Positions 30,250-61,505 of a stretch of DNA of 64,000 bases are shown in pieces. The DNA comes from an uncultured delta proteobacterium (GTDB lineage: Bacteria > Desulfobacterota > RBG-13-43-22). Position numbers and translations under genes: made by a program. Each line of letters begins with the position of its first letter. Position 1 is the first letter of the stretch. The notes beneath the pieces are model-generated. The model saw only the letters and a list, made by a program, of their open reading frames with translations. It ran no database searches and was not told where the DNA came from. The DNA is taken from NCBI GenBank assembly GCA_963790475.1, contig CAWBOS010000015.1, positions 224,001 to 288,000 of the forward strand, read 5' to 3'.

Positions 30250-30308
30250 TCTTGAAATGAAATCCTGATATGCGATTAATTTGAATATAAAAAAAGGAAA
30301 TTTAATAT

Positions 30309-30452
30309 ATGGAAGAATATAAATGCGAACATTGTAAAGGAATAGTTCAAATAACTATATTAGAAGATACTGAAAAGGAGACAGATCCAATTATAGAATT
30401 CTGTCCCTTCTGCGGGATGTCAAAATATTATCCGAAAGAAATAGAAGTTTGA
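30309..30452 (+). CDS. 47-aa zinc-ribbon protein
   Basis: Hand translation MEEYKCEHCKG...EFCPFCGMSKYYPKEIEV; AAGGA upstream; below ORF-track cutoff. Confidence 0.6.
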   Translation: MEEYKCEHCKGIVQITILEDTEKETDPIIEFCPFCGMSKYYPKEIEV

Positions 30453-30463
30453 ATTGGTTAAAG

Positions 30464-31477
30464 TTAAACTTCTTCTAAATACAAAATGCTATCTCTTACA
30501 TAATACTCTACAAAAATAATATTATTTTCCCTCAAGGCGTCAAGTTGTTTACATAGATTATTGTAATTTTCAAAAATTATTTGTCTAAATTTGCTATTAT
30601 CTTTATCCCTTAAAAAGATTAAATAAAAATTAAATCTCTCTATGTTCTTTGATTCGATTCGATCTGAAAACAAGGAATAGCATAAATGCTTTCTAATTTC
30701 CTTTTCAATCTGGAGGATAATGCTATTTGACAATTTATCCTTTTTTAATTCAAGAACATTTATATTGTTTTTATTTAGAATTGCAATATCTGAAGGGTAA
30801 GCATTCCCAAAAATAAATTGATTGTGGACATTCGATGATCGTATCTGATTATTTCTGTATTTTCCTAACAATTTGTCGATGTTTTTATATGCTTCGCTAT
30901 CGATTCTTTTGAGACTTAAAATTATATAGGATTCTAGGTCACTTTCTGAAGAAAAAAAGTGTTTTTTATCCAATTTATTTTTATCCCATAAGTATTTACA
31001 ATTAACATCGATTATACTACCGGGTAATTCCGAGTATGCCCAATGGTTATGATCTAGACCAAAATGTTTAAAAGTTTCAAATATTGCCTCACCTTCTTCT
31101 TGGGTTAAACATATACAATGCAAATGCTTATTTTGTTGGATCAGATTTATTAATCCAAAATAAAATCTTTCATTTTTTGATTCGATTCCGTTTATATATA
31201 AATCTGTTTCTTCAATTTGTTTTATTTTTTCGATTGGCTTCAGTCGAATACGGTAGAAATAACTCTGTTGTGGATAAATGATAGTTTTATTATGAAAAAG
31301 TTCTTTTAATACTGTAAATGGGCCGAAAAGGGTTTGCGATTTATAGTTGAATTGAGAAAGATAAATTATATCACCTGCGTTTACATTGGCTAACCAATTG
31401 GATTGGGTTGACCCATATGTTAAAAACTTAATACAGTCTTCTGCGAACTTAGTTGTTGTGACAATATAATGCCTCAT
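30464..31477 (-). CDS. Putative PUA-like (EVE/DCD) domain fused to PD-(D/E)XK nuclease
   Basis: N-terminal WL..VNAGD.IYL...LFGPF...YRIRL; C-terminal ESDLE...SDIAIL...VLELKK; very AT-rich. Confidence 0.55.
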   Translation of the reverse strand: MRHYIVTTTKFAEDCIKFLTYGSTQSNWLANVNAGDIIYLSQFNYKSQTLFGPFTVLKELFHNKTIIYPQQSYFYRIRLKPIEKIKQIEETDLYINGIESKNERFYFGLINLIQQNKHLHCICLTQEEGEAIFETFKHFGLDHNHWAYSELPGSIIDVNCKYLWDKNKLDKKHFFSSESDLESYIILSLKRIDSEAYKNIDKLLGKYRNNQIRSSNVHNQFIFGNAYPSDIAILNKNNINVLELKKDKLSNSIILQIEKEIRKHLCYSLFSDRIESKNIERFNFYLIFLRDKDNSKFRQIIFENYNNLCKQLDALRENNIIFVEYYVRDSILYLEEV

Positions 31478-31969
31478 ATTATATGAACTAGCAAAAGGCG
31501 GAGAATTTGTCTAGAAGTAAATTCTTGGACCTTATAATGTGAAACCAACTGACAGAAGGATGGTGGGAGTATTAATTCCTGAATGTCCGACCCAAAGAAC
31601 TTCTGGAAGAGTTAGGTAGGGAACTCTATATCAAAATAACCGAAATAATCCGGGCCGAATGGAGCAAATCACGGAGCAAGACTTAATAGACTATAATTGG
31701 GTTAGTTGGTCATTGACCGCACATTTGATGGGTACATAACCCAAATCGAGACCATCTAGGGACAGTTAGAAAAGTAATTCCAGGTTAAGATTGAACCTGC
31801 CCCCCCACCAATGGGACAGGCTTTTTAAAGTGGACTTTTTTATAAAAATCAAAGACAGCTATATCGGGATACAAATAAAACCTATCCATCAAGGGATATA
31901 GTTATCACAAATCTTCAAAGAACCGGAGGCTGGCCCTAGTTTTCTAAATACTTAAGAAGGAGGATTGCC

Positions 31970-32743
31970 ATGAGTGAATCACGAGGGGTTGCCATCGTAA
32001 CCGGATCATCAAGGGGTGTTGGTGCGGCAACGGCAAAATTGCTGGCCAGGGAAGGCTTTAATGTCGTCGTAAATTTCTCGAAGAGCCAAGAAGAAGCGAA
32101 AAAAATAGCTGCTGCCTGCGAAGCCCTGGGGGCCGAGACCCTGCTCTACCAGGCCGATGTCGCGCAGGACGCTGATTGTCGCCGGATGGTCGCGGAAGCG
32201 GTCAAAAAGTGGGGACGCGTCGATGCCCTGGTGAACAACGCCGGGACTACGAAATTCTGCGCCGCGGATAATCTCGAAGGCCTCAGCAAAGAGGATTTTC
32301 TCGATATTTACGGAGTCAATCTGGTGGGCCCGTATCAGATGATAAGGGCAGTAGCCCCGCACATGAAAGAGCAGGGGAAAGGAGTCGTCGTCAATGTTGC
32401 CTCCATTGCTGGGGTAATGGCCATCGGAAGCTCGGTGGCCTATATCGCCTCGAAGGCAGCGCTGATTGGCATCACGAAAGCCCTGGCCCGGGCCCTCGGC
32501 CCGGAAATCCGCATCAACGCCGTCTGTCCGGGTTTCATTCAGGGCGAATGGCTGAGGGACGGCATGGGCCAGGAGCTTTATGACGCGGTGAAGAATCACC
32601 TGGAGACCACCTTACCGTTACGCGCCACCTGTACGCCTGAGAAGGTGGCCGAAGCCATCTTCCTATTTATACGCGGGGCCGATCTGGTCACCGGGGAAAC
32701 ACTGCTTTTCGACGGCGGTCAACATCTGGGAAAGCTTATGTGA
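31970..32743 (+). CDS. SDR family oxidoreductase
   Basis: TGSSRGVG, NNAG, YIASK. Confidence 0.92.
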   Translation: MSESRGVAIVTGSSRGVGAATAKLLAREGFNVVVNFSKSQEEAKKIAAACEALGAETLLYQADVAQDADCRRMVAEAVKKWGRVDALVNNAGTTKFCAADNLEGLSKEDFLDIYGVNLVGPYQMIRAVAPHMKEQGKGVVVNVASIAGVMAIGSSVAYIASKAALIGITKALARALGPEIRINAVCPGFIQGEWLRDGMGQELYDAVKNHLETTLPLRATCTPEKVAEAIFLFIRGADLVTGETLLFDGGQHLGKLM

Positions 32744-32757
32744 TAACTCGCGGACAT

Positions 32758-32900
32758 TTTATTCAAAACATCGTTAGCCAACAACCCATCACTTCTGACG
32801 AAAATGACGTTATTAAATATCGTTGCGGTTCGAAGATTAGGAACATCACCAAGGAAACGGAAGCTATTACCAACGGTAACGGTGCAGTCTGATCTGCCCT
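32758..32900 (+). repeat. Dispersed intergenic repeat, copy A
   Basis: Core TCGAAGATTAGGAACATCACCAAGG shared with copies near 36070, 37940 and 40090. Confidence 0.85.
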
Positions 32901-32993
32901 TTACCCAATAGGTTATTTAAGCTTTATGAAATATTTGGTATAATGACTCGGAAATTCGCAGTTTAAATTCGAAGAATATTAAAGGGAGGACTT

Positions 32994-33443
32994 ATGATTT
33001 CAAAGATTCTTCTACCGACAGACGGTTCCAAGGCAGCTCAAAAGGCAGCCCGGTATGCAGTTAACCTTGCAACACAGTTAAAGGCCTCCGTAATTATCCT
33101 GAGCGTTATCGATAACCGTTCATTGGTAAGCCAGACCGTTGTTGCCGCGGAGACAGCAATGCAGGTTATACAGCCTATCGAGGATTATCTGCGGGAGGCG
33201 GCTAAAGGTTATGCCGGAGAGATAAAGAAGTTGTGCGACAAAAACGGTGTCCAATCAAAGACCGTCATAACTATAGGGCATCCTGTCGAAGAGATTGTCA
33301 AAGAGGCCAAGAAGTCAAAGGCAGATCTCATTATCATAGGTTCTCATGGAAGAAGCGCTTTAGCCGCTGCGGTCCTCGGCAGTGTTGCCTATGGTGTAAT
33401 CCACAACGACACAAAAATCCCTGCCCTGGTGGTAAAGCAGTGA
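32994..33443 (+). CDS. Universal stress protein
   Basis: KILLPTDGS, DLIIIGSHG...LGSVA. Confidence 0.92.
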   Translation: MISKILLPTDGSKAAQKAARYAVNLATQLKASVIILSVIDNRSLVSQTVVAAETAMQVIQPIEDYLREAAKGYAGEIKKLCDKNGVQSKTVITIGHPVEEIVKEAKKSKADLIIIGSHGRSALAAAVLGSVAYGVIHNDTKIPALVVKQ

Positions 33444-33449
33444 TCTATT

Positions 33450-33476
33450 ATGAAAAGGTCGTTATTAACTATCTCT
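33450..33476 (+). repeat. Dispersed repeat, short copy F
   Basis: ATGAAAAGGTCGTTATTAACTATCTCT matches the repeat's middle part. Confidence 0.6.
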
Positions 33477-33490
33477 AGGGTCACCTGAAC

Positions 33491-34144
33491 TTGCTAAAGA
33501 CCACAAAAGCAGGAGGTTCGATTTTGCGACAGATATGGGCTGCGATTTGTCTTACGACCTTCCTTCTGGTGGCCTTGGCGAACGCGGCTGACCAAGCTCA
33601 GAAGGAGGATGCCGCCAAGGGCAAAGCGAAAGTATTAGAGGAGAAGGCCACGCCCGAGGGAAGCAAGAAGCTACCTACTCCGGCCCAGATCATCACTAAG
33701 CCCCAAGCGCAGTCGGTCGATCCGATCGGCGAAGAACCATTGGATGATGCGATCACCTGTCTTGCCCGCACCATCTACTGGGAGGCCAATCGCAAGGATG
33801 ATGCCGAAATGGAAGCCATCGCCAATGTCGTTATGAACCGGCTCGGTCATAAGGGCTTCCCAATCACCATCTGCGGAATTGTCAAGCAAGGCCACGAACA
33901 GGGTACCTGCCAGTTCTCGTGGTGGTGCGATGGCCGTTCGGATGATGCAAAGGAGGATGAAGCCTACTCGCACGCCAAGGAAATCGCCCGCAAGGCCCTC
34001 AACCGGCAACTCAAGGACCGAAGCGGTGGAGCTTTGTATTTCCACAATCGCAAAGTAACCCCAGATTGGTCAAACGAATATGTCAAAACGGCTGAGGTCG
34101 GCGAGCACGTCTTCTACCGGCCTGGTGGCGGCAAGGCCAAATAG
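33491..34144 (+). CDS. SleB-family cell wall hydrolase
   Basis: CLARTIYWEA, VVMNR, CQFSWWCDG, GALYFH, HVFY. Confidence 0.9.
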   Translation: MLKTTKAGGSILRQIWAAICLTTFLLVALANAADQAQKEDAAKGKAKVLEEKATPEGSKKLPTPAQIITKPQAQSVDPIGEEPLDDAITCLARTIYWEANRKDDAEMEAIANVVMNRLGHKGFPITICGIVKQGHEQGTCQFSWWCDGRSDDAKEDEAYSHAKEIARKALNRQLKDRSGGALYFHNRKVTPDWSNEYVKTAEVGEHVFYRPGGGKAK

Positions 34145-34189
34145 GCCCTGTCGGTCGGTTTCGGCAAAGCTTCCGGCAAATTTCAAAAT

Positions 34190-34228
34190 ATAGCAGCCTG
34201 ATTACCTTTGAACCTTTATAGAAACAGG
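34190..34228 (+). repeat. Dispersed repeat, 3' part only (copy E)
   Basis: ATAGCAGCCTGATTACCTTTGAACCTTTATAGAAAC vs ATAGCGGCCTGATCGCCTCTGAACCTTTATAAAAAC at 40131. Confidence 0.75.
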
Positions 34229-34283
34229 CATCGTCCCTTTTTTTTATACTTTGAACTGAAATCCATCAGACCAAGGACTAAAA

Positions 34284-34634
34284 ATGAAAATTACACGCAT
34301 CTACACGGGGAAAGACAATCAATCACATTTTGAAAATATTGATATCTACCTGAAAAACGGTGGAAAAGGCGGCTTTATGTCCGAATTAATGAAGGCCACC
34401 GGGGTTATCTTTCGGGAAACCGACGGCTCGTATAATTATGATTTTCACAATGCACCCCGGCGTCAGTATGTAGTAAATCTGGAGGGCGAAGTAGAGATCG
34501 AAATCGGCGACGGGACGAAACGGATCCTCCATTCCGGTGACATCCTTCTGGCCGAAGACACCACCGGTCAAGGGCACAAAAGCCGTGCTGTCGGCGGCAA
34601 GCCGAGGAAATCTCTGTTTGTTACCTTGGACTAA
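34284..34634 (+). CDS. Cupin-domain protein
   Basis: G.SHFE, HNAPRRQ, GDILLAEDTTGQGH. Confidence 0.8.
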   Translation: MKITRIYTGKDNQSHFENIDIYLKNGGKGGFMSELMKATGVIFRETDGSYNYDFHNAPRRQYVVNLEGEVEIEIGDGTKRILHSGDILLAEDTTGQGHKSRAVGGKPRKSLFVTLD

Positions 34635-34670
34635 AAACGGGCCTTGCCCTTAGTTTTGGGAGTTTTCATT

Positions 34671-35973
34671 ATGATAAATGAAACGGTTGAAATCCTTTCC
34701 GAATACCTGCAGATCAATACCACAAATCCCCCCGGCAATGAGGCTAAAGCCGTACGGTTCTTTGCGGAAATATTCGACCAGGAAAAAATACCCTACCAGA
34801 CCTATGAGTCTAAACCGGGAAGGGTTTCCATAAAAGCCAACCTGACCGGCTCCGGCAAAAAAGGGCCGATTATTCTCCTTAACCATATGGATGTGGTCTT
34901 GGCAAACTCTCAACGAATATACTTTCGATCCTTTCGGCGGGAAAATAATAGACGGATATATATGCGGGCGCGGGGCGCTGGACATGAAGAGCATTGGTGT
35001 CATGCAGCTTATGGCCATTTTGGCCATGAGACGGGAGGAGGTGTCCCTTAATCGTGACCTGGTATTTCTTGCGGCTGCCGATGAAGAGACCGGAGGGTCG
35101 TTAGGGGTCAAGTACCTGATGGAGAATTACCCGGATGATTTTAATGCCGCCCTGGTTTTAAATGAAGGGGCGCACGGACTTTCCAATATGGTTCCGGATA
35201 AAACGGTCATACTTCTTGCCACTGGAGAAAAGGGACCCTGCTGGCTTAAGCTAAGCTGTAAAGGACCTTCCGGTCATGGCTCTACGCCGCATGCCCGGAA
35301 TGCCTTGGTGAAAATGACTCAGGCCCTGGCCAGACTTCTTTCAGCAGAATTGCCGGTCATTATTACCCCGATAGTGCACGAATATTTCAAAAGGCTTTCA
35401 TCGGAATGGTCATTCCTGGGTCCATTTAAAAAGGATGGCCAGCATAAAACGTTAGCCCGGGTGCTGAAGAAAAGCGGAATGCTCAAAGTGCCCCAGATAA
35501 ATGCCATGGTAAGAAACACGATTAGCCTTAATATCTTAAATGCAGGAAATAAGATCAATGTCATTCCCGATTACGCCGAAGCACAACTGGATATCAGATT
35601 GTTGCCGGGTCAGGACATTAATGAGTTCGTTGCCTTTGTAAAAGAAAAACTTGCCGATGATGACCTGAAAATAGAAATACTATTAGCCTCCGGAGGAAAT
35701 GAGTCTGATACCAACAATGATGATTTTATAATTATTCAGAATGCGGTTAATGAACATTTTAAAAATTCCATAATGCTCTTCTATCTCATGTCGGGAATAA
35801 CCGATTCTCGATTTTTCAGGGAAAAAGGAATCACGGCTTATGGCTTTTGTCCTATTTCTATTCCTGTAGAGCATTTAAATATGATTCATGGAGTGGATGA
35901 AAAGATATCTGTCGATAATATGATTAAGGGAACTGAAGTTTATATGGATATAGTGAAGAGACTTTGCACATAA
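34671..35973 (+). CDS. M20/M25/M40 metallohydrolase, frameshift near 34905
   Basis: TTNPPGNE, LLNHMDVV, GRGALDMK, DEE, GHGS, TDSRFF, HGVDE. Confidence 0.88.
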
Positions 35974-35982
35974 TATAGCGAG

Positions 35983-36101
35983 CCGTTCGTGCAGAACGTG
36001 CTTCGCAGACAACCCGTCGATCCTGGCGAAAATTACGTTTTAATCATCTCCGCAGTTTAAAGATCAAGAGCATCACCAAGGGGGCGGAAGCTTTCACCAA
36101 C
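35983..36101 (+). repeat. Dispersed repeat, copy B
   Basis: CAACCC...GAAAAT...AAGATCAAGAGCATCACCAAGGGGGCGGAAGC..ACCAAC. Confidence 0.8.
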
Positions 36102-36159
36102 GCCTCAAAACCTTCACAAACGCGAATATCTCCTGAGGAAAGTCCAAACCTGTTCGGAA

Positions 36160-37392
36160 TCAAATCTTTCTGTTAGGTATCATCATCAGGAATAGAATAG
36201 AAAGTCCCGCCAATATGGCATAGAGTTGAAAGGCCATCGTGTAACTGTGATACATATCAAATATCCAGCCCGCGAAAACCGGAGCAATAATGCCTGGAAT
36301 AGAAAAAGCTATGGCCATCATACCCCGAATAGAGGCGAAGGATCGGACCCCGAAATAGTCGGCCTGAATCCCAGGGAGAAGGGGAACCGTAGCGCCGAAG
36401 CCGGGTCCGTAGAGGAGGACAAAGGGGATAATCATCCAGGGGCTGCTTATATTGGCATAAATGAAAAAACCGACCGCCTGCATGGCTGCCGAGATCATCA
36501 GAAGACGTTTCTTACTGTAAGTATCCCCCAGCCACGAAATAAAGAGTCTGCCAACGAGGCTCACCAAAGCATAGCCGGCCATGGCGAGGGCCGCCAGTTT
36601 TTCCGATATGCCGGCATTGATCAGGTGAGGCATTTCCTGCACGGGAATTGTACTGAAGGCGAATTGAACGCAGAAGGCAAAAAGAAAAAACATCCAGAAA
36701 GCCCTTGTTTTCAGGGCTTCCTTCAGTGTAAATCCCGGTTCCCCTTCTTGAAAGTTAGCGGAATCCGTAGGATTCCCTTCCAGTATGATCCCATCCGGCT
36801 GCATTCCATAAGATTGAGGCCGGTCTCTTATGAAAAAAGACAAGGGAATGCCAATCACCAAGATAAAGGGGCACAGCAGAAACATGGTCTCACGCCATCC
36901 GACAGATCTTATCATCATGGCTATGATAGGCGTCATCAGGCCGGAGACGCCCCATCCGGTAGTCAGTAAGCCAAGGGCTAAGGACCGCCGTTTCTTGAAC
37001 CAATTGGCTACGGCCGTATATTGAGCGATACCCGCAGCCATCGTGAATCCTAACGATAAAAGCACAAAACCAACATAAAAAGTCGTAAGCGTAGTCATTC
37101 GACTGAGAAGGAACAGGGAAAGCCCCATAAGGATTAGGCCGACGAAGATACATTTCCTGACGCCGGTGCGATCGACGAAAATACCTATGAGGGGCTGAAA
37201 AACTCCACCCTCGATACTCCTCAGAGAGAAGGCGAAAGATATGGCCGCGCTACCCCATTTCATTTCTGAAGATATAGGATTAAAAAAAGCCGTAAAGCCA
37301 TAGAGGGCCGTTCCCCCGGTTATGACCAGCAATACGAAAGAGGCCAGGACTATCCACCAGCCGTAAAAGAGACTTTGCATTTTTTTGAGCAT
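36160..37392 (-). CDS. MFS transporter (MCT/OFA-like)
   Basis: FYGWWIV, DRTG, ANWF.KRR.LALG, EALKTRAFW, ADYFG. Confidence 0.9.
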   Translation of the reverse strand: MLKKMQSLFYGWWIVLASFVLLVITGGTALYGFTAFFNPISSEMKWGSAAISFAFSLRSIEGGVFQPLIGIFVDRTGVRKCIFVGLILMGLSLFLLSRMTTLTTFYVGFVLLSLGFTMAAGIAQYTAVANWFKKRRSLALGLLTTGWGVSGLMTPIIAMMIRSVGWRETMFLLCPFILVIGIPLSFFIRDRPQSYGMQPDGIILEGNPTDSANFQEGEPGFTLKEALKTRAFWMFFLFAFCVQFAFSTIPVQEMPHLINAGISEKLAALAMAGYALVSLVGRLFISWLGDTYSKKRLLMISAAMQAVGFFIYANISSPWMIIPFVLLYGPGFGATVPLLPGIQADYFGVRSFASIRGMMAIAFSIPGIIAPVFAGWIFDMYHSYTMAFQLYAILAGLSILFLMMIPNRKI

Positions 37393-37884
37393 TTAATTCA
37401 TTAACTCCAAATAATAAGAATGGCTGAAAGGCATCTTCGATTCAATGGCCGTTCAATGTTCATCCAGATTTCATAAGATGATCATTCAACCATGTATTTA
37501 AATTTCTTGTCCCCCGACGTTGCGATGGAACCGGCTGGCATCTTCCTGATACGACTGCGCGATCCCACAACAATCGGGGAAATGTCTTTTTTCTTTGCTG
37601 TTGAAATTTAGACCTTCGCAGAAATATTTTTTGAATTATTAAGGAAGGATCTAAAATCCTCAGAGGGAGTTCTTTATAGACTCCTCGAGGCCGATTAAAG
37701 TTATTATAATTTTCCCATGGAGTCAATCGCTTGTTTAGATCTTTATCATCCTATAGTCAAAGGCTCAGAAATCTCCCGCCCATAAGCGCTCGTGGATCGC
37801 GCCACTTTTCCTTTGAACAAGGAAGGCAGAGGAAAGCAATTGATCGTTCTCACTTTTTTCCCGCTCTTTTTATGTGTCGAATGG

Positions 37885-37959
37885 CTCACTTCTGATGAAA
37901 AGGTCGTTCTGAACAATCTCTGCGATTTGAAGATTGGGAACATCACCAAGGGGGCAGAA
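37885..37959 (+). repeat. Dispersed repeat, copy C
   Basis: CACTTCTGATGAAAAGGTCGTT...GAAGATTGGGAACATCACCAAGGGGGCAGAAG. Confidence 0.85.
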
Positions 37960-38004
37960 GATGGGGCGGACAGAGTTGCGATAGAAGGTTTGGAAGATGC
38001 GAAT

Positions 38005-38733
38005 CTAAAATCGTAATGTTTCCAATCCACTGAGGACATCCACAAAGCGATAAGCGAAGTAGTCGGGGGTCACATTTTCATGGGATTTGGCTCCCTGGTT
38101 GGAGTTGATGTAGATGGCCTTGATGCCGAGCCGGCTAGCCCCGTAAATATCCCGGTACATGTCGTTGCCCACGCAAATCACCTCGGTCGGCCCGAGCTTC
38201 AATCCGTCGAGGGCTTTCCCCATAAGCCTGGTATCCGGTTTCCTGAATCCGAAGTGCGAGGAGATGATAATAGGGTCGAAATAGCCGTCCAGTCCTACGG
38301 CCTTTATCTCCGGCAGGGCGTAACAGGACTGGGCATCGGAAACGAGGGCCAGGCGGTAGGCAGGGCTTAGCTCGTCAAGCACCTTCTTCACGTCGGGATA
38401 AAGCTGGAGACGATTCCGGGATATGCCCCGGTAGATTTGGGCAAGAATCAAGGCTAGTTTACGACGTTCATGGGCTACTTTTATGCCTTCCTGCTCGAGG
38501 AAAGTATTCCAAATGGCCTCTACGTCTATTTCCGGGTATTCCTCACCGCGTATTTCTTTTTGTTGCTTCATGATCTGGTAGTATCGCTCCCGCACCTCCC
38601 ACCGATGCCGATATACCCCATGGTAGGTCAGATAATGGGAGATTCCGCGGTATATGTCATCCCTGGACTCGTCGGTCTCGATATCGATTAAGGTCCCATA
38701 AAGATCAAACAGAATTCCCTTGATGGCCTTCAT
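38005..38733 (-). CDS. HAD family hydrolase
   Basis: FDLYGTL, RKPD, VGNDMYRD. Confidence 0.88.
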   Translation of the reverse strand: MKAIKGILFDLYGTLIDIETDESRDDIYRGISHYLTYHGVYRHRWEVRERYYQIMKQQKEIRGEEYPEIDVEAIWNTFLEQEGIKVAHERRKLALILAQIYRGISRNRLQLYPDVKKVLDELSPAYRLALVSDAQSCYALPEIKAVGLDGYFDPIIISSHFGFRKPDTRLMGKALDGLKLGPTEVICVGNDMYRDIYGASRLGIKAIYINSNQGAKSHENVTPDYFAYRFVDVLSGLETLRF

Positions 38734-38737
38734 ATAT

Positions 38738-39736
38738 TTACCTCAATGTTGTCCTTGCTTCATCCAACAACTGTCGTCGGTAATGATTGGTAATCCATGA
38801 ATTACGCGCGATGCGAAGCAGGGTTATCCCCATGTGAAACGGAACGCGGCGGGTGATGGATCGGAAGGCGCTCTCCCGGTCGGGAAAGTGACCGGCATAC
38901 TCCCAGAGAAAGTGACCGATATAGGGTTCCGCCGGCCATTTGTCGCCAGTATATTGCATAAAAAAATGCTTGATCTCGGCGGCTACCCGTCCCAGGTCGA
39001 AGGCCCGGTCAGCCATTTTCATGCGCTCCAGGTCTATGGCGATCACCCATGGGCTATCGCCGAAGAGGATATTGGAGGGAGTCACGTCGCCGTGGACAAG
39101 GACCTGGTTGTCCTCCCACATAAATCCCTTTGCCCGCCACCGTTCCTTCAGACGGTGGAAATCCTCAGCCTCATCCCAGCCGATGTGACCCCAGTATTTT
39201 AATTGATCCATAATCCGGTCGAAGTAGAAGCAGTCCCGGTTGACGTCCACCCGGTCCCCGGTAGCAGTCCTGTTGTGCAGAGTGGCGAGAAAGTAGGCCA
39301 GGCTGGTGAGCTTCTCAAAGAGGGCCTTCCTCGCGCCTTGCCGGATCGCCTTAACGATAAAGGTGTCAAGCGGCGTCCCGTAGCAGAACTCCTCAATCAG
39401 GACACAGTCGAGCTCAGCATTGCGACCGAGAGGACGGGTTATGTAATGGGGGTATCCGGTAAAGCCGATACTTCGCAGATAATGGAGATTCTTGAATTCC
39501 CGCTCCATGTGATGGCAGGCTGTTTCCGGCGAGCGGCCTGTGATACCGGCAAAAAACTTACCGACAATGCGCGTCCGGGTTCTTATATCTTCGTAGAGGT
39601 AAACATGGTTGGATGCCTGAATCCCATACACCCGGAAGTCGGGGGAGAACCCGTCGACACCGAGCTGCGCCAGGATGTCATAGCGAAGATACCCATAAAG
39701 GGGATCTTGCTTGGGAAGATGTCCGAGATATTTCAT
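38738..39736 (-). CDS. Aminoglycoside phosphotransferase/kinase-like protein
   Basis: LATLH, HGDVTPSN, IDLE, DLG. Confidence 0.85.
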   Translation of the reverse strand: MKYLGHLPKQDPLYGYLRYDILAQLGVDGFSPDFRVYGIQASNHVYLYEDIRTRTRIVGKFFAGITGRSPETACHHMEREFKNLHYLRSIGFTGYPHYITRPLGRNAELDCVLIEEFCYGTPLDTFIVKAIRQGARKALFEKLTSLAYFLATLHNRTATGDRVDVNRDCFYFDRIMDQLKYWGHIGWDEAEDFHRLKERWRAKGFMWEDNQVLVHGDVTPSNILFGDSPWVIAIDLERMKMADRAFDLGRVAAEIKHFFMQYTGDKWPAEPYIGHFLWEYAGHFPDRESAFRSITRRVPFHMGITLLRIARNSWITNHYRRQLLDEARTTLR

Positions 39737-40005
39737 GAAAGCTCTATTCGACCACAGGACATTGCATGGATAACCAATTAATTTTTATAGCAAATAATAT
39801 AAAGAAAAAAATCCGGCCTGTCAATACGAATGACAACACTTTTCCTGAACTCATTCTGACAACAGGAAATGCAATCGTGTTGATGTTCTCTGCCAATAAA
39901 CAAACCAAGGGACACTCCCCATATTTTAATGACTACTAACTATTCGACGTGAAGCGGGACGTTCCTGCACAGGAATCGGAGAACATATTACCGATATGAG
40001 GCAGG

Positions 40006-40169
40006 CCGGACGTAGGGAACGGGCTTAGATGATAACCCATTCCTTCTGATGAAAATGGCATTTATTCCTATCTCTGCACTTCGAAGATTGGGAACATCAC
40101 CAAGGAGCGGAAGCCACCACCAACGGGAAGATAGCGGCCTGATCGCCTCTGAACCTTTATAAAAACGGG
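40006..40169 (+). repeat. Dispersed repeat, copy D (longest)
   Basis: Aligns with A/B/C at its 5' side and with E/G at its 3' side. Confidence 0.85.
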
Positions 40170-40205
40170 GGCTAATATAAGATTACAAGACATGCTTATC
40201 GAATT

Positions 40206-40450
40206 CTATTCCCGGCCGTCCGGAGTTATTCCTGACGTCTCAACCCTTGGAGGAGGCTCCAGACGAACGTGTTTCACGGCTATGAGAATGAGTCCGACTC
40301 CCGCCCAGAAAAGCGACAGCGCGCGGCGGATGATGGTCAGTGACAGAGCAAGTCCGGCACTCCAGCCAAGCCCGGCGAAAACCACCAGATTCGTCGCTTC
40401 ATATGTTCCGAACGAGGCTGCGGCTATGGTGATGTGAAGCGGGACTTTTG
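40206..40450 (-). pseudogene. C-terminal remnant of a lysylphosphatidylglycerol-synthase TM (flippase-like) protein
   Basis: FGTYEA....F..LG....ALSLTIIRR...FW..VG pattern. Confidence 0.55.
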
Positions 40451-40769
40451 TGAGAAACGCGCTTATCCAAGAACCCTCCACTTTGAGTAAAATCTCGTTA
40501 TTAACAATTCCAATGGCTGGAAGATGATAAACCGTGAAAGTCTAAACTTTTTCTTGCTGACAACCTTTAACCAAAGGAGTGTCCATGGAAGAACGAGAGC
40601 CCATTTCTTTAAAAAAAGAAATGGGTTTTTTTTGAGCAAAAATAAAATAGGAAACATGGAAAAGATAGATTGGTTTACCCCAGCGCTCACTTTTTAACTA
40701 ATCGTTGAGAAATAAAAACTTCTTTTCGGATATCATAGTGTTAACACTTAGCCTGCGGGGGATGAAATT

Positions 40770-42125
40770 ATGAATGGTCTGGATGAAAACAAGAGCGGAA
40801 TAGGCGAGCAACCTAAAGATTTCTGGTCTTATTTAAAGCAAAAGGAACTGGATTTTTTCCCTTCAGGGTCTTTGAGATGGTGGTTAGTGGCCATTATTAC
40901 CATTGCCTGGGCCACGGAACAATTTGAGAGATCCCGGCTTTCACCGGTTCTAGTCTATTTTCTAAAAGATTTCAACATAACCTTAAAATTCTTCGGTCTG
41001 ATGAATCTGCTGGCCATCATTGCTTCGTCCGTAGGAGCCTATACCCTTGGCACCATCGCCGACCGATACGGAAGGCGGCATGCCATTGTCTGGCCCATGC
41101 TAATTTATCTCGTCATTCTGGCCGGTCTGGCCTCGGCCCCCAATATTTGGTTATATGTCAGTCTATCTACTATTGGGGCTTTTTTGATTATGGGCACGTC
41201 TGCCTCAGTTAATGCGGCCATTCGGGATATCATCCCCCGGACAGGAAGAGGTGTGGCCTTTGCCTTCATCAGTCTGGCCTGGACTTTGGGGGCTTTTATG
41301 ACTCAAGGTGTAGCGGCGGTCACAACCCCCATCTGGCCCGGATGGAGGCCACAACACTGGATCGGGCTGGTCATTTCACTATTATTGACTGCATTGGTCT
41401 ATATATATTATCGAGATATATCCATGAGGATAAGGGGTCAGATTGTCGACGATCAACTGGGGGCCATAAAAGCCGGACTGGAGGCCCACGGCATCAAAGA
41501 TATTGAGGCCCTCAGAAACTCTGGATCGATCATTTACAAAAAATTTCATATCTGGATGATCGCCGCAATCCTTATGACCTGGGGGACTACCTACACCACT
41601 TTTACGGCCTTTTTACCAACTTATCTTACTCAATGGCATGGTGTTCATCCGGCCAAGGCAGCGGCCTTGGCCACTTGGTTTTGGTTGCTGGCCGGATTCA
41701 GTATTTTCCTGTCCGGTTATATCTCGGACAAAACTGGCCTTCGCAAACTCACTCTGTCGGTGGGTTCATTGATTACTGGCTTACTGGTCATAGTCGGAGC
41801 TACGCTTCCCAGGAATACCAGTTATCCAACTTTAGTTATCATGTGGCTTTGTGTGGCCGCTATCGCCGGATTCATCTATCCCTCCTGGTGTGCCATTCTT
41901 TCGGAAAACACAGAAGACATCAATCCCTTCAGTGTTGGCCGGGCCTTTGGTCTGGCCGGTGCCCTGACTTTTCTCACCGGTCTGATTCTGGCCTTGATTT
42001 TGCCGCAGGTAGTAGCCCGGGCCGGCTGGGGAACTTGGATGATCTATGCCGGCGGCTTTGCCATCAGTAATATCTTTTTCATTTCATTTGCTAAGGAACC
42101 TTGGCTCAAGGTACGGCGGCTCTAG
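40770..42125 (+). CDS. MFS transporter
   Basis: GTIADRYGRR, GYISDKTGLRK, about 12 TM; stop codon overlaps the IS end. Confidence 0.9.
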   Translation: MNGLDENKSGIGEQPKDFWSYLKQKELDFFPSGSLRWWLVAIITIAWATEQFERSRLSPVLVYFLKDFNITLKFFGLMNLLAIIASSVGAYTLGTIADRYGRRHAIVWPMLIYLVILAGLASAPNIWLYVSLSTIGAFLIMGTSASVNAAIRDIIPRTGRGVAFAFISLAWTLGAFMTQGVAAVTTPIWPGWRPQHWIGLVISLLLTALVYIYYRDISMRIRGQIVDDQLGAIKAGLEAHGIKDIEALRNSGSIIYKKFHIWMIAAILMTWGTTYTTFTAFLPTYLTQWHGVHPAKAAALATWFWLLAGFSIFLSGYISDKTGLRKLTLSVGSLITGLLVIVGATLPRNTSYPTLVIMWLCVAAIAGFIYPSWCAILSENTEDINPFSVGRAFGLAGALTFLTGLILALILPQVVARAGWGTWMIYAGGFAISNIFFISFAKEPWLKVRRL

Positions 42126-44109
42126 CCCATCTTCCGCAGTTAGAAAGCATGGAAGACGCGATATCAAATAGTTACGACAAGAATTAGGGCATTTTCTTCA
42201 CTACATTTTCAATAATTTTTGGTTTGTTGGGGAGCAGAATTTTCAATCTCTGAAGCAGCACTTTGAGTTCCTTTGAGGGAGTAGCCACCATTCTGAGCCG
42301 GAGGGTTCTCTCCCGCGCCGGTAGTAGCACATCCAAAGATTTCAATTCCCGCAACTCCTCCAACAGCTTTCTTGGGGCGGTACCGAGTCCCGAGGCTTTC
42401 ATCCATTGCTGGAGCGTTCGCCACATAGTCAGCGCCAAGAAGCAGACCAGGATATGAGCCTGGGTCCGTTCCTGTTTTTGATGGAAGATCGGTCGCATTC
42501 CCAGATCATGTTTCTCGGTACGGAATGAATCTTCCACTTCCGTCAGTTGGATGTAGGTATTCCATAGGACTTTCGGGTCACTTTCGGTCCAGTTGGTGCG
42601 CAGGATGTAGCTACCGCCGGTCTCCAAGGCCCACTGTTGCCGTTGTTCGTTCTTCTTGACTTCTAGGGAAAGCGGTGCGTCTTTTCCGGTACCGGTCTCT
42701 ATGACTGTAATATTGAACAACGAGGCCGCACGTTTATTTTGTTCCAGCAGTCGCCCTATTCTCCGCTCGACTTTCTGCTTGTCTCGGAGCTTGCCGGTTT
42801 CGGCCTGGCGGGCCAGGTGATCCAGTTGGCTTTCCAGTCGGGTCAAAAAGTGGTTTAGAATGGCGTTTTCTTTCTCCTTCCGGCCTTGAGACCGGCACAG
42901 GACAAAGATTTCATCCGTTCCTTCCGGCGAGCAACAGAGCTTGACCTCAACACCAGGTTGGACCGCTTCCCAGTTCTGTTCGAAAAGCTGCTGCTCAAAC
43001 TTCTTCAGCATCACTTTTGGGGTGCCGACCAAATAGCGGGCACCGACTTTGCGCATAAACTCCAGATTCTCCTCACTCACCATGCCGCGATCCATAACCC
43101 AGATCCGGTTGGCTTGGCCGTATTTGGCCTCCATCATCTGAACCATCTCTTGGGTCGTCGTGACATCCGGTCGATTGCCGTCAAAAACCTCAAAGGCTAT
43201 GGGAAAGCCCTCTCGGGTGGCCACCAGGCCGATGCAGACCTGGGGACAATCTGGACGACTGTCCCGGCTGTAACCCCTCTTGGCCTGGGCATTGCCCTTG
43301 GCGGTCCCCTCAAAATAGGTGGAGGTTATGTCATAAAACAAAAAATCAAAGCTACTGCCGAACAGTTCCCCATAACGCTCCTGAAGGTGACGGCTTAAGG
43401 CATCCTTGTGGGGAAGCAAGGCATCCAGGGCACGATAAAGCCGATCCTCATTGATCTTATAGTCGGCCACTCCCAGCAGATCGTCTAAGGCCGTCTGGCC
43501 ATACCAAAACTCGGCCATCTGTAATTCCGACGATGGGGCGCAAAAGCGTCCAAGAACTAAAATAGACGCCATGATCGACCAAGGAATCTCTTCCCGGTTG
43601 GAAGGAATATGATCTCGGCAGAACCTGGCAAGCCCCAGTTTGTTCCACAAAAACAACCCCAAATAGACATCGCCGAAGCCTCTGAGTCGCTCGACGCTTA
43701 CGCCATGGATATTGACCGTGGCCCAAGATGGGGGGTCTTCCCCCTGCTCAAACAGTTCAGGTCCAGGTAGAGGCTTTCCGGAAAGAATCCGTCCGATCTC
43801 CTCCCAACCTATCCGCTCTTCCCGATCAAGGCCAGGAAGTTTCCCTATCGTCGCCACTACTCGCTGACGGGGCCCTCGGGCAGTACGGACCGACTCAACT
43901 AAAAGCCAGCTCTCGTACTCCGCTCCACCTTTCTTTTTGGTCGCACGCCGGAGATACATAACCCCATTATCTCCGTTCCCACAGCACCTGGCAAGGGGGT
44001 GGTCTTCACTACATCCAATTTTCAAAGATCAGGACTTGAAATCATTTAACAATTCCTAACAATTCATCACGTTTTTCTTGATTTTTTCTCCAAACTGCGG
44101 AAGATGGGC
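42125..44109 (-). mobile_element. IS1634 family insertion sequence, copy 2 (1985 bp)
   Basis: Same IRs, TA on both flanks, only a few substitutions versus copy 1. Confidence 0.93.
42184..43959 (-). CDS. IS1634 family DDE transposase
   Basis: Same protein as copy 1 except one L>F change. Confidence 0.93.
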   Translation of the reverse strand: MYLRRATKKKGGAEYESWLLVESVRTARGPRQRVVATIGKLPGLDREERIGWEEIGRILSGKPLPGPELFEQGEDPPSWATVNIHGVSVERLRGFGDVYLGLFLWNKLGLARFCRDHIPSNREEIPWSIMASILVLGRFCAPSSELQMAEFWYGQTALDDLLGVADYKINEDRLYRALDALLPHKDALSRHLQERYGELFGSSFDFLFYDITSTYFEGTAKGNAQAKRGYSRDSRPDCPQVCIGLVATREGFPIAFEVFDGNRPDVTTTQEMVQMMEAKYGQANRIWVMDRGMVSEENLEFMRKVGARYLVGTPKVMLKKFEQQLFEQNWEAVQPGVEVKLCCSPEGTDEIFVLCRSQGRKEKENAILNHFLTRLESQLDHLARQAETGKLRDKQKVERRIGRLLEQNKRAASLFNITVIETGTGKDAPLSLEVKKNEQRQQWALETGGSYILRTNWTESDPKVLWNTYIQLTEVEDSFRTEKHDLGMRPIFHQKQERTQAHILVCFLALTMWRTLQQWMKASGLGTAPRKLLEELRELKSLDVLLPARERTLRLRMVATPSKELKVLLQRLKILLPNKPKIIENVVKKMP

Positions 44110-44629
44110 TAATTCTACCCGTATTAATTATTTTGATCGGCCTGGTCAAGGAAACATTGGCAATTTAATCGGCTGTAACAGGAATTGGTTTATTTTCCTG
44201 TTAAAGGTTTAATATATGAACAGACTCTATAGTCGAATCTTCGGGATGGCTACTTCGTTCGTTGATAGGGTTCATACCAATAATTGTGGCTTGAAGTTAT
44301 TTAGGTCAATGAATAATTGGTTTACGGGACCGGAAGGTTAAATGAAAAAATAGCTTCCTGAAATCCCTAAATTATGTTTTTAAAAAAATAAAATATCTTA
44401 AATGCTAATCGTTTACCAACGTTTCCTATTTACTGGTCCCGTTCCAAAAAAAATCTACTATTACTATTCCCAAATCATTTATAATGTGGTTCATTCAATA
44501 ACCAAGTTAGTAAGTTAACATGTCTCCAGTTTTGCCACTTTACACTGGTGAGAGGCGGGAACGTTGAGGAATTTGATGAGCCCGGTTTCTGAAGGAGGAA
44601 CATCCCGCCGACACGTTAATCGGAGTCGA

Positions 44630-44900
44630 ACCATAACGAATGATGTGATAACACCGGGTTTGCGCTCGACCGCGGTAGGCCTTTACAACTTTATTGCTCA
44701 AATAATTGGTTCAACCGGAGGAACCATTTTTGTAGGTACCGTTTCTGATAAACTTGGGGGGTGGAGTGTATGGACTACAATGGGGCCTGATTTCTACCTT
44801 GCCTATAGCCGCTCTATCCATAGTTGCCAGCCTGATTATGACAAGATTCTATTCGGCCGAAAGTGCCAGGATCAGCGATGAGCTAATGGCAGAAAAATAA
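44630..44900 (+). pseudogene. MFS transporter C-terminal remnant, frameshifted
   Basis: DVITPGLRSTAVG...G.TGG..FVG.VSDKLG. Confidence 0.65.
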
Positions 44901-44929
44901 ATCCGCAGGTTTTTTCTTAGGGCAAACCT

Positions 44930-44984
44930 CAAGGGACGGAAGTTATCATCAACCGTTATGGCGGCACCTGATCCTCTCTGTAAC
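44930..44984 (+). repeat. Dispersed repeat, diverged copy G
   Basis: CAAGGGACGGAAGTTATCATCAAC...CCTGATC with the same spacing to TGA as in A and D. Confidence 0.6.
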
Positions 44985-45037
44985 TTTAGTAAAAACACAC
45001 GCTGTCTCAGTCTCGGCAGGACAGCAATAGATAATCC

Positions 45038-45460
45038 TCAGGGATCGATCCGGGCTGAAGCACTGCCGCTCAACACGACAACGCCGTTTTGATTGATCGT
45101 CTCCACTTTAAGATCAACAAAATATTTCCCCTTTTCTTCCCGGATGGCCTCTATGGTGGCTTTGGCCTCCAAGTCATCCCCCGGCCAGACCTGATTGGTG
45201 AAACGGACTCCATACTTAGTCAGCCGGCCGTCTCCCACATAATTGGTGAGCATCTTGCCCGTCATGCCCATGGTCAGCATCCCATGAGCGAACACCGATG
45301 GATACCCGGCCACCTTTACCGCAAAAACCTCATCCGTATGAATCGGATTATAATCCCCGGAAGCGCCTGCATACTGGACGATCTGGGTGCGTTTCAAGTC
45401 TTCGACAATGCGTTCGGTATGGACATCCCCAACTTTTAGCTTGCTTGCTTTTAGTGCCAT
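45038..45460 (-). CDS. MaoC family dehydratase (catalytic subunit)
   Basis: YAGASGDYNPIH, AHGM, VRF..QVWPGD. Confidence 0.9.
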   Translation of the reverse strand: MALKASKLKVGDVHTERIVEDLKRTQIVQYAGASGDYNPIHTDEVFAVKVAGYPSVFAHGMLTMGMTGKMLTNYVGDGRLTKYGVRFTNQVWPGDDLEAKATIEAIREEKGKYFVDLKVETINQNGVVVLSGSASARIDP

Positions 45461-45634
45461 AACTTAGGTCCTCATTATTATTGATGGACATGTAAAGCGT
45501 CCATCAACAGGCCGAGGACGATTAAGTCCCGGCCTGGGGTGAAGGTGGAACCGCTTGAATTTACTTCAAGTGGCGGGAGAGGGAAGCCCTTGCCCGCCTC
45601 GTGAAAAGTTGCCTTTCGACTTTTCACGAGGTAA

Positions 45635-46132
45635 TTATTGTTGTTCAACTGCTCGTTCGGTTTGGACACCTACCCCGCGTGCCGTAACAACCAATTCCCC
45701 TTTTTGATCCCGGAATTCGATAATGGTTTCGGAGAAGACCAGTTTTCCGGATCGACGTCCCTCTTTCTCCCACTTTTTACCCGGTTTAATGGTTGCCGTG
45801 AGTACATCACCCGGCCGCAAATGGCGGTGGTACTCGTAATGTTGCTCCGCATGAAGGCCACGTCCCCCGCCTCCGGTATCACCGCTTGATCCCGCTTTTA
45901 TCCCGGTCGGCTCTTTTCCGGATCCGAACCAGGGCTGACCGATCTTGGGACGCAGGAAATAATCAGGGTCAAATTGGGCACTCGCCTGAATAAAGGTTGG
46001 TGGGGCTATGATACCGCCCGGTTCCGCGGTCTTGGCAAATTTCTCATCGTAATAAATCGGGTTGCCATCACCAATGGCCCTGGCGAACATCATAATGTGG
46101 CTTGCTTCGACTGGAAATTTCTCAATAGCCAT
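45635..46132 (-). CDS. MaoC/FAS1-like dehydratase partner subunit
   Basis: FARAIGD.NPIY, APPTF, LHAEQ.YEYHR.L.PGD. Confidence 0.88.
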   Translation of the reverse strand: MAIEKFPVEASHIMMFARAIGDGNPIYYDEKFAKTAEPGGIIAPPTFIQASAQFDPDYFLRPKIGQPWFGSGKEPTGIKAGSSGDTGGGGRGLHAEQHYEYHRHLRPGDVLTATIKPGKKWEKEGRRSGKLVFSETIIEFRDQKGELVVTARGVGVQTERAVEQQ

Positions 46133-46438
46133 ATTCCTTCTCCCTGTGAATGGTTTGATGCTTTAGAATATACTCCAAAAATTCTTTTTTTCAATAAATT
46201 TGATAATTCTCCATACCGGGACGAAGTCTTATATAGAAAAGTTTAAATCGAACCGGGAAATTTCTACAATTCGGGAAAATAGCCACGGCCGCGGCCGTCG
46301 GGGTCAATTCCAGAGACCATAGAAAATATCCGCATTTTTTTCTTTTTGTTTTCTCATTCCCAACCCTTTTATTTCAAGATTCATTTATCTTATTAATCGA
46401 GATTAAGACATTTTCACGCAGGAAGCCTATAAAAACTG

Positions 46439-46464
46439 GGGCCATCCCTGGTTTTGGATGGCCC
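46439..46464. terminator. Hairpin, possible terminator
   Basis: GGGCCATCC-ctggtttt-GGATGGCCC. Confidence 0.45.
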
Positions 46465-46488
46465 CTTGCTACGTGGATCGTAGATAAA

Positions 46489-46734
46489 TCAGGCTCCCGG
46501 TGACTCACCTCGTAAAATTGCCCACTGTTTAACAATGCCAATCGGATGAATACCCCCTCGAGTGAATCTTTTTTCGGCGGCTATTTTCTTCGCAGCTCGC
46601 GGCGGGCATGACGGAGCCTTTAGTTGCCAAACTCCGTCCTCAAACTCGGCGACTTCATCGATGTAGGCTTTCCCCCAGTCTGCGATTTCGATAGTATCAT
46701 CTCCAGCTAAGGGGTGCCAATAAGAAAGCTTCAT
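46489..46734 (-). CDS. Hypothetical protein
   Basis: 81-aa non-overlapping ORF; no recognised motif. Confidence 0.4.
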   Translation of the reverse strand: MKLSYWHPLAGDDTIEIADWGKAYIDEVAEFEDGVWQLKAPSCPPRAAKKIAAEKRFTRGGIHPIGIVKQWAILRGESPGA

Positions 46735-46797
46735 TGTTTTATTGTTAATATTTTACCCGTGGGCGGAAGAAAAATCAATCAATAGTGAGAGGAGGGA

Positions 46798-46880
46798 TCA
46801 GGGTCGGTCTTTGACTTTTGGTATTTATCGGGCTTTGGCCTAGCAGACCAAGACCATTATACATCAAGGACCGACCCTGA
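46798..46880. repeat. REP-like inverted repeat
   Basis: TCAGGGTCGGTCTTTGA ... TCAAGGACCGACCCTGA. Confidence 0.65.
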
Positions 46881-46888
46881 AGATTTAT

Positions 46889-61428: not shown

Positions 61429-61505
<77 letters not shown>

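Follow-up and report, generated by a model that had tools for sequence, protein, structure and literature searches.

The 64-kb stretch analysed here (hereafter the window; positions 224,001 to 288,000 of contig CAWBOS010000015.1, assembly GCA_963790475.1), from an uncultured delta proteobacterium of the GTDB lineage RBG-13-43-22, carries an island of small metabolic and transport gene cassettes separated by copies of one degenerate direct repeat, here called the unit. Variable gene islands are usually explained by integrons, tRNA-targeting integrases or insertion sequences (IS). The present island varies among species and strains of its uncultured lineage without these usual agents at hand, the sole common feature being the 215-bp direct repeat, and it is most likely a recombinase-less, integron-like island. 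The unit is a composite of about 215 bp, made of a 5' palindrome of the repetitive extragenic palindrome (REP) type (~30 nt), ~140 bp homologous to part of the YD-shell region inside a teneurin/Rhs-like gene, and a ~35-bp tail. Throughout, G000 denotes the genome to which the window belongs (own genome), the other G numbers genomes of relatives, C contigs, L loci or contigs, and X public runs.

Copies of the unit were sought with an nhmmer profile built from 10 long copies of the own and related genomes, which returned eight copies or fragments in the window, all on the + strand (Table 1): the seven reported when the sequence was first read, and c6b. A 23-mer core was matched with at most one mismatch at 32832, 37929 and 40083, with 0.00 matches expected from 100 shuffles; together with the profile and a reading of the sites, this confirmed that all seven reported sites hold pieces of one + strand repeat. 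Taken alone, the remnants c2 and c3 (33450 and 34191) fell short of significance in the whole-genome search (E 0.43 and 0.12); they were accepted as copies by position, since in relatives the corresponding places, after USP and before M20, are occupied by long copies. Remnant c2 is a unit with internal deletions which aligns within a full copy at the same post-USP place of G004, whilst the place of c3 is taken by longer or full copies in G004, G005, G008, G011 and L145. The REP part of c1 is degenerate, and its 3' end is cut at CTGATC and joined to the upstream region of USP, as seen in the junction alignment with G004 and L145. Of the REP palindromes in the window, that of c4 is the best kept, at 35980-36001, where the pattern is matched with 2 mismatches (C15:259980-260001) and 5/6 stem pairs are kept. 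In the profile search, the truncation points of the fragments were scattered along the unit. Stop codons upstream of copies were located at 32743, 33443, 34144, 35973 and 44881, and the distances given in the original prediction, with five copies starting within 50 bp of an upstream stop, hold. REP elements commonly sit just after stop codons.

Table 1. Copies of the unit and genes of the island, in window coordinates. E-values of unit copies are from nhmmer.
Feature	Position	Strand	Profile positions	Evidence	Context
c1	32728-32916	+	4-195	E 3e-48	Directly after SDR stop
c2 remnant	33450-33476	+	77-103	E 0.009	Between USP and SleB-like gene
c3 remnant	34191-34239	+	161-210	E 0.003	3' part and tail, upstream of cupin/M20
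c4	35953-36161	+	4-213	E 1e-43	Between M20 stop and 3' end of MFS(-)
c5 fragment	37886-37962	+	68-144	E 6e-21	
c6	39978-40192	+	3-221	E 1e-51	Longest copy, REP part degenerate
c6b fragment	40429-40525	+	19-116	E 4e-10 and alignment	Missed in the original prediction
c7 fragment	44932-45011	+	132-211	E 9e-11	
SDR gene	31970-32743	+		Pfam adh_short_C2, 5.6e-56	Left neighbour of first unit, also in G004 (truncated) and L145
USP gene, cargo	32994-33443	+		Pfam	Shared with G004
SleB-like cell-wall hydrolase gene, cargo	33491-34144	+		Pfam	Methyltransferase in its place in G004
Cupin-like ORF and M20 peptidase, cargo	34284-35973	+		Pfam	Shared by all arrays
MFS transporter gene	36160-37392	-		Pfam	
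HAD hydrolase gene, cargo	38005-38733	-		Pfam, synteny	Absent from G004
APH-type kinase gene, cargo	38738-39736	-		Pfam, synteny	Absent from G004; different neighbour in run X5
MFS gene, cargo	40770-42125	+		Pfam	Absent from G004
IS1634-family element	42126-44110	Transposase on -		Pfam, NCBIfam	Absent from G004
MFS remnant	44564-44881	+		Pfam, NCBIfam	Absent from G004

The strand of the unit is constant (+) whatever the direction of the cargo genes, and the original description, in which copies of one degenerate repeat form a same-strand array between unrelated cargo genes, is supported. Outside the array, the 6.34-Mb assembly contains one further unit fragment only, intergenic at C6:544274-544373. 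No terminal inverted repeats were found in the whole unit, and all eight window copies, like all copies in the arrays of relatives, are co-oriented. With neither inverted ends nor dispersal in both orientations, the unit is not a miniature inverted-repeat transposable element (MITE) or IS fragment. The lone fragment on C6 (locus L152) corresponds to the 3' part of the unit and has a patatin-like gene downstream of it; in G005 and L141, another patatin gene borders the array on its left.

Same-strand unit arrays occur in five of the 14 genomes of the genus (the own genome, G004, G005, G008 and G011), as well as in five metagenome contigs, and with the queries used none was found in seven genomes of three other genera. 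A degenerate pattern scan of wider contigs yielded at least 119 stretches, those listed being nearly all chance matches in unrelated phyla, with L020 relevant. With a slash standing for a unit, the gene order in the window is SDR / USP / SleB / cupin-M20 / MFS(-) / HAD(-)-APH(-) / / MFS-IS1634-remnant / MaoC(-). The order is SDR (truncated) / USP / methyltransferase / M20 / hydrolase-GT2-MFS(-) / MaoC(-) in G004, patatin / flavoprotein-cytochrome c3 / M20 / orf97-ECH(-) / MFS(-) in G005, / HpaB / M20 / DUF362-hydrolase / orf97-ECH-SDR-orf196 / MerR...M24-MFS in G008, and SDR / M20 / MFS(-) in L145, while L142 and L148 hold still other cargo genes. M20 and MFS(-) are thus common among the arrays, and the remaining cargo differs. 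Orthologues of MFS(-) with 84-88% identity were present only in G004, G005 and G008, the three genomes whose arrays were fetched at length, G011 having relatives at 38-40% only.

At strain level, the data consisted of contigs assembled from public runs, with partial cover of the stretch in X1, X3, X4 and X5. In the X5 contig, SleB follows the APH gene after 264 nt, a different cassette order, and in the X3 contig the order USP-SleB-M20-MFS is kept, with 47 and 24 other letters replacing c4 and c3. A joint of 32850 to 38006 in X5 was not counted as a deletion, as the 51 letters concerned may be that strain's own c5 copy. The cargo between copies was therefore found to vary among relatives and strains, as had been anticipated. 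Because the cargo varies and the full unit is not scattered genome-wide, neither of the outcomes set against the array in the original prediction, namely a known MITE or IS fragment in random orientation and an invariant gene content between copies, applies to the whole unit. Identity between units ranges from 56 to 88%, and copies at the same position in different genomes (0.677 alike, 20 pairs) are no more alike than other pairs (0.709, 306 pairs).

Several of the cargo differences coincide with split or hybrid units. In the window, c5 and c7 lie 7 kb apart and together correspond to about one full unit that in G004 stands between MFS(-) and MaoC(-), with an overlap of ~13 nt (CAAGGGGRCRGAAG); they look like the left and right halves of one unit that is whole in G004. 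Likewise, c1 and c3, with USP and SleB between them in the window, make up about one full L145 unit located between SDR and M20, the overlap being ~11 nt. The post-M20 units of G005 and G008 have in common an internal deletion between two CAGAA motifs, which starts inside the right arm of the REP. The post-M20 copy of G005 is an in-register hybrid, joining the 5' part of the post-M20 copy of G008 to the 3' flank of the next G008 copy, and G005 lacks the DUF362 and hydrolase genes that separate those two copies in G008. The post-M20 unit of L145 combines the 5' flank of the G005/G008 post-M20 copy with the 3' deletions of the pre-MFS copy of G005. Overall, at least five presence/absence differences of cargo have both ends inside units. 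Junctions vary between events, at about 132-144, 156-161, 175 and 185 in unit coordinates, and the crossovers would have fallen at differing places, near the 5' end, in the middle and at the 3' end of the unit.

The original prediction had taken the copies for 3' ends of one gene from different lineages, on the ground of a peptide-like reading that ends in a TGA. Translated searches of relatives returned short open frames in three congeners and one match within a 2,427-codon open frame of G007, which at the matching segment reads ...NYLCSLKIGNITKGTEGITYTYDGSLITSE... / ...GHLIRTETPEGNIAYNYLCSLKIGNITKGTEGITYTYDGSLITSETLSG.... The encoded protein is teneurin/Rhs-like, with Pfam matches to TEN_YD-shell and RHS_repeat and a C-terminal PLA2-like match, and the matching segment is internal, ~480 residues before the C-terminus (residues ~499-556, with the motif at 523, of the 1,043 C-terminal residues read). 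At DNA level, the unit consensus shares 80-83% identity with the genes of G007 and G008 across 69 in-frame columns, the differences at codon positions 1/2/3 numbering 2/4/8 and 2/3/7, respectively. Since these differences lean to third codon positions, the founder fragment derives from a coding homologue. Across 27 copies and fragments of the unit, column identity was 0.818/0.841/0.847 at codon positions 1/2/3, with no third-position excess, and the lack of a codon signature argues that divergence of the copies took place in non-coding DNA and not in gene ends inherited through separate lineages.

The peptide-like reading is indeed visible, but the TGA described at the same position corresponds to CTGAT(C/T) in four of the seven reported copies (32758, 34190, 40006 and 44930), the other three being diverged or truncated there. 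In the frame of the gene, this supposedly conserved TGA is the CTG ATC (Leu-Ile) of YDGSLITSE, read out of frame. A 12-nt in-frame deletion relative to the gene is common to all copies holding that part, and only some copies lack 1 nt with respect to the Rhs frame, which six copies keep; a frameshift shared by all copies was accordingly dropped as the source of the TGA. No intact target gene was found at the end of the array, where the first unit comes after the SDR stop and is in a different frame, the homologous gene being located on contig C11. An internal YD-shell segment without codon signature, an out-of-frame TGA and the lack of both an adjoining intact target gene and an integrase do not agree with displaced gene ends, which a pseudo-coding repeat can mimic.

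The orthologue of the teneurin-like gene on C11 encodes a protein 58% identical to that of G007 and diverged in the segment of the unit, and the gene is uninterrupted at the unit-homologous site in G000, G007 and G008. A HMMER search with a near-consensus 68-residue reading against 1.84 billion representative proteins gave 35 matches, the best ten of which were open reading frames (ORFs) of 43-92 aa called over unit copies, while the long matches were YD-shell proteins with 38-59% identity. No full-length parent with the exact sequence of the unit emerged from a search for longer homologues, which covered proteins of 120-2000 residues and hence not genes of 2,400 residues. The possibility that the island was built inside a second, broken Rhs gene was discarded, as no other Rhs-like remains were present in the window or in the fetched arrays of relatives. 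As to the gene on C11 (C11:253848-261266, locus L151), its product of 2,430 aa bears TIG, TTR, FN-plug, NHL and YD-shell domains with C-terminal phospholipase-A2-like matches, and is of the bacterial polymorphic-toxin type with a eukaryote-like teneurin architecture.

The unit is closed by the ~35-nt tail (…AAAAACGGGCGCTGTCCC…), similar tails being found at two other places of the genome; an interpretation of the tail as an inverted REP was rejected by eye, only GTCCC being in agreement. RNAalifold gave a consensus fold with 0 pairs (12 copies), and fold energies did not differ from those of shuffled sequences (z -1.6 to +2.0; eight copies, both strands), hence the units have no shared fold beyond the 6-bp REP stem. 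Rfam models searched at E up to 1 over 30000-48000 matched nothing in the units, the only hit being a sub-threshold L31-leader match at 42874-42907, outside them. A structured RNA or known RNA family, the alternative raised in the original prediction, was rejected on these results, the only tRNA gene of the window lying at 61429. Promoters and terminators were likewise dismissed, a consensus scan returning 23 and 20 sites where 16.4 and 16.7 were expected, with no site recurrent among the units. A cis-regulatory role of the units accounts for only a small remainder of the probability.

In array-less genomes, a DNA search with a near-consensus copy gave matches over the first ~30 nt only. This part contains the REP 22-mer GGGACGTTCGTGCAGAACGTGC, with the palindrome ACGTTC-N5-GAACGT. 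Allowing up to 3 mismatches, the 22-mer was found in 15 of the 21 family genomes, on both strands, compared with a single match in all of them for a reversed-pattern control; copy number is low, with 0-18 matches per genome at this threshold, and 5 forward and 2 reverse matches in the own genome. The motif occurs as inverted doublets 80-290 bp apart in several genomes, and REP singlets and doublets elsewhere lack the YD part. Inverted REP pairs ~1.09 kb apart occur in G007, G006 and G010, and the content was read for the G007 pair only: at locus L159, the motif at 434-455 (+) is followed by a 331-aa ORF matching Pfam Y1_Tnp (4.5e-10) and by an inverted motif at ~1506-1527. The own genome has a Y1_Tnp homologue, 62% identical, at C6:222996-224000, with the motif just upstream at 222939. 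The two loci, C6:222939-224000 and G007 L159:434-1527, form a REP/RAYT (REP-associated tyrosine transposase) system in a small candidate class, with the flanking motif GGGACGTTCGTGCAGAA.GTGC.

REPINs are described as inverted REP pairs that exploit RAYTs (PMC3337134). With a palindrome on both strands and inverted copies flanking a Y1_Tnp gene, the motif has the anatomy of REPs/REPINs with a RAYT. The suggestion that the copies are ends of a mobile element finds a partial parallel in the 5' ~30 nt, a REP which flanks an IS200-like Y1 transposase gene and recurs elsewhere in inverted doublets and on both strands. The whole unit is not a REP or REPIN, as the full unit is confined to the arrays and one fragment. 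Within units, 5-6 of the 6 stem pairs are kept in near-consensus copies, whereas only 2-4 of 6 are left in 9 of 19 units, and in the window only c4 (35953) keeps 5/6; no compensatory changes were apparent in the stem, and conservation of the REP part does not exceed that of the rest of the unit.

As had been observed initially, the window holds no integrase, the nearest PF00589 matches on the own contig lying ~243 kb and ~258 kb from the array. PF00589 was also absent from the array contigs of G004 and G008, PF00239 (serine recombinase) had 0 matches in the own genome, and no recombinase was detected among the ~45 cargo ORFs scanned, nor in or beside the ~10 arrays/contigs examined. The integron integrase model TIGR02249 passed its cut-off in one of the five array-bearing genomes (G004), the best score in the own genome being 105 bits against a cut-off of 265. 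The integron-integrase genes of G004 (NCBIfam; C14:282408-283340 and C29:177825-178760) are on contigs other than that of the array, therefore true integrons may coexist with unit arrays in the genus. On C10 and C13 of the own genome, a multi-copy element with tandem recombinases is represented by three near-identical gene pairs, each of two adjacent tyrosine recombinases (384/344 aa and 316/314 aa; C10:824463-825813, C13:40171-41522 and C13:166503-167853).

The reading that we favour, with a confidence slightly short of even, is that the units are decaying non-coding direct repeats between the gene cassettes of a strain-variable island, where recombination between units, most likely general homologous recombination, causes the loss, gain and reordering of cassettes. 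The mechanism of cassette exchange is inferred from comparison of sequences. Two direct units would loop out a circle carrying one unit and its cargo, and the circle, or imported unit-flanked DNA, could re-enter at any resident unit by a Campbell-type event or, for imported DNA, by a double crossover. Re-entry would duplicate the unit and keep its orientation, deletions would erode units afterwards, and it would be by historical accident that the founder unit was of REP and YD origin. Homologous recombination between units would account for duplication of the whole 215 bp, uniform orientation, hybrid units, several crossover positions and the lack of a recombinase gene.

A number of points weigh against this reading. 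The recombination events are deduced from assembled contigs, none having been directly observed, and the hybrid-unit readings rest on few short alignments, for which other event orders are possible. Units with 56-88% identity are a poor substrate for RecA-type recombination, save for the near-identical orthologous units of close strains. The scattered truncations need extra illegitimate deletions, and could equally mean that units are passive. With a unit in nearly every intergenic spacer of the island, breakpoints outside genes would fall close to units in any case. The lack of extra likeness between same-position copies agrees with unit turnover, but one ancient burst and subsequent decay would explain it as well. 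Finally, the model leaves unexplained how a new gene was first placed between two units.

A passive-relic scenario, where an old local duplication burst left units in every spacer of an island whose variability has unrelated causes, with units inert in cargo change or behaving as ordinary REP-like elements, is unlikely in our estimation. It would accommodate the neutral decay of copies, the similarity of same-position copies to any others, the loss of c3 and c4 in a close strain with gene order unchanged, the scattered truncations and the position of unit starts just after stop codons. Against it stand in-register hybrid units exactly where cassettes are present or absent, and at least five presence/absence differences with both ends in units; moreover, the units hold no consistent promoter or terminator and match no Rfam family. 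Slightly more probable, albeit still rather unlikely, is an exchange driven by the RAYT, with the Y1 (HUH) transposase acting in trans on same-strand REP hairpins, so that, by single-stranded cutting and rejoining, the stretch between two REPs would leave as a circle and re-enter at another REP, the REP playing the role of attC. The REP identity of the 5' ~30 nt of the unit, shared with the inverted motifs around the G007 Y1_Tnp gene, the 62% identical homologue of the own genome with its upstream motif, and the 5-6/6 stem pairs of near-consensus copies are in favour of such an exchange; one-strand units regardless of cargo direction are expected of a strand-specific single-strand enzyme, one inferred crossover (L145 post-M20 versus G005) lies at the REP, and the G005/G008 deletion starts in the right arm of the REP. 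On the other hand, the duplicated unit spans ~215 bp, of which the YD part and the tail would be neither required nor copied by an enzyme acting on the REP; the remaining putative crossovers are in the middle of the unit or at its 3' end; stems are lost in many units (2-4/6 pairs in 9/19) without compensatory changes or better conservation of the REP part; and REP singlets elsewhere were not seen bounding variable cargo, although no systematic look was made. Furthermore, RAYT-type enzymes are not known to move long segments. GC skew on the + strand of the contig is mostly negative, and no conclusion was drawn on the strand that a single-strand enzyme would use. The more complete version of the idea, in which the island is a working cassette platform without integron, a RAYT-type Y1 transposase in trans cutting and rejoining single-stranded REP hairpins of the units and cassettes moving as circles, is rated a little below either of these two possibilities.

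Least probable of the three rivals, and in our view improbable, is the serial site-specific integration put forward in the original prediction, according to which cassettes arrived as integrative elements with a unit-bearing attachment site, their integrase genes having been lost or acting from elsewhere. The same-strand array, the variable cargo and the unit halves flanking inserted blocks with short overlaps (~13 nt for c5/c7, ~11 nt for c1/c3) are compatible with it, and a comparable layout, with partial tRNA repeats scattered through the island alongside degenerate elements, has been described for tycheposons (bioRxiv 10.1101/2020.12.28.424599). However, no tyrosine or serine recombinase lies in or beside the ~10 arrays/contigs examined; no intact target gene adjoins any array, the homologous segment being internal to a gene on another contig that is uninterrupted in G000, G007 and G008; junction positions vary between events; and the differences among copies bear no coding signature.

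Compared with known systems, the island resembles, in its working, an integron array or an additive island of the tycheposon type, but fails the defining tests of both. Integron arrays and integrase-less attC clusters share with it a one-strand repeat after unrelated cargo, cassettes that vary in presence and order, and many cassettes of one or two genes. In contrast to integrons, the own genome has no integrase above the cut-off, the units contain no long imperfect palindrome of the attC kind (only a 6-bp REP stem), they measure ~215 bp with the fossil of a coding gene inside, and three cargo genes lie on the opposite strand. Tycheposons are presented as additive islands of tandem integrative elements with scattered partial tRNA repeats and degenerate remnants (bioRxiv 10.1101/2020.12.28.424599). 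The likeness lies in repeated gene fragments that punctuate an island of variable cargo with remnants of older events, whereas the tycheposon repeat is there described as part of an intact tRNA gene at the island edge, with integrases in many elements, and the present one is an internal piece of a distant protein gene plus a REP, with no integrase or integrase remnant found.

As in REP/REPIN-RAYT systems, the 5' ~30 nt of the unit are a short extragenic palindrome which occurs in singlets and inverted doublets and flanks a Y1_Tnp gene; unlike REPs and REPINs, the whole unit is seven times longer than a REP, sits at one locus and on one strand, and separates variable genes. Orphan Rhs or CdiA toxin-tip modules, which lie downstream of polymorphic toxin genes, offer a further comparison. 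They are similar in that fragments of Rhs/YD genes are repeated in direct orientation as possible homology for recombination (PMC3967940). They differ in that the present fragment is not the end of a core before a toxin tip (~480 residues before the C-terminus in G007), the array is not beside the parent gene, and the cargo consists of metabolic and transport genes (SDR, USP, SleB-like, M20, MFS, HAD, APH) rather than toxin tips with immunity genes. A narrow literature search of titles and abstract starts found no description of REPs or REPINs as cassette boundaries, nor of repeats of REP plus gene fossil bounding variable cassettes, supplements being outside that search.

If plain recombination between such repeats suffices, the island would exemplify a simple route to an integron-like gene store, which could be searched for elsewhere. 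Should the REP part be the active site, REP/RAYT systems would be linked to gene capture, and a true RAYT platform would constitute a second, independent hairpin-based cassette system and give REP/RAYT pairs, the function of which is still debated, a role in gene capture.

Within the island, a frame break near 34910 divides the M20 gene (34644-35973) into overlapping ORFs of 135 and 360 aa, the orthologues of relatives measuring 438-442 aa, and the X3 and X5 contigs have one base fewer at 34910. The split gene may be either a real pseudogene or an assembly indel, and single-base indels in single assemblies, such as this one, may be assembly errors. The IS1634-family element (1,985 bp, with ~19-bp inverted ends) has 14 copies in the genome, 99.2-100% identical, two of them in the window (42126-44110 and 10605-12589), and in run X1 its contig has a depth ~10x that of its neighbours; the element in the array is a late arrival. 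Long target duplications by this element were considered and rejected, given that no long flanking repeat was present and that the MFS remnant is not a copy of the end of the MFS gene. Just left of the array, an AT-rich block (window 29000-32000; 32-37% GC versus ~49% for the genome) holds a DNA methylase fragment (N6_N4_Mtase, 29839-30249) and a 337-aa minus-strand ORF without Pfam family (30464-31477), and is likely foreign DNA, perhaps a decayed restriction-modification islet.

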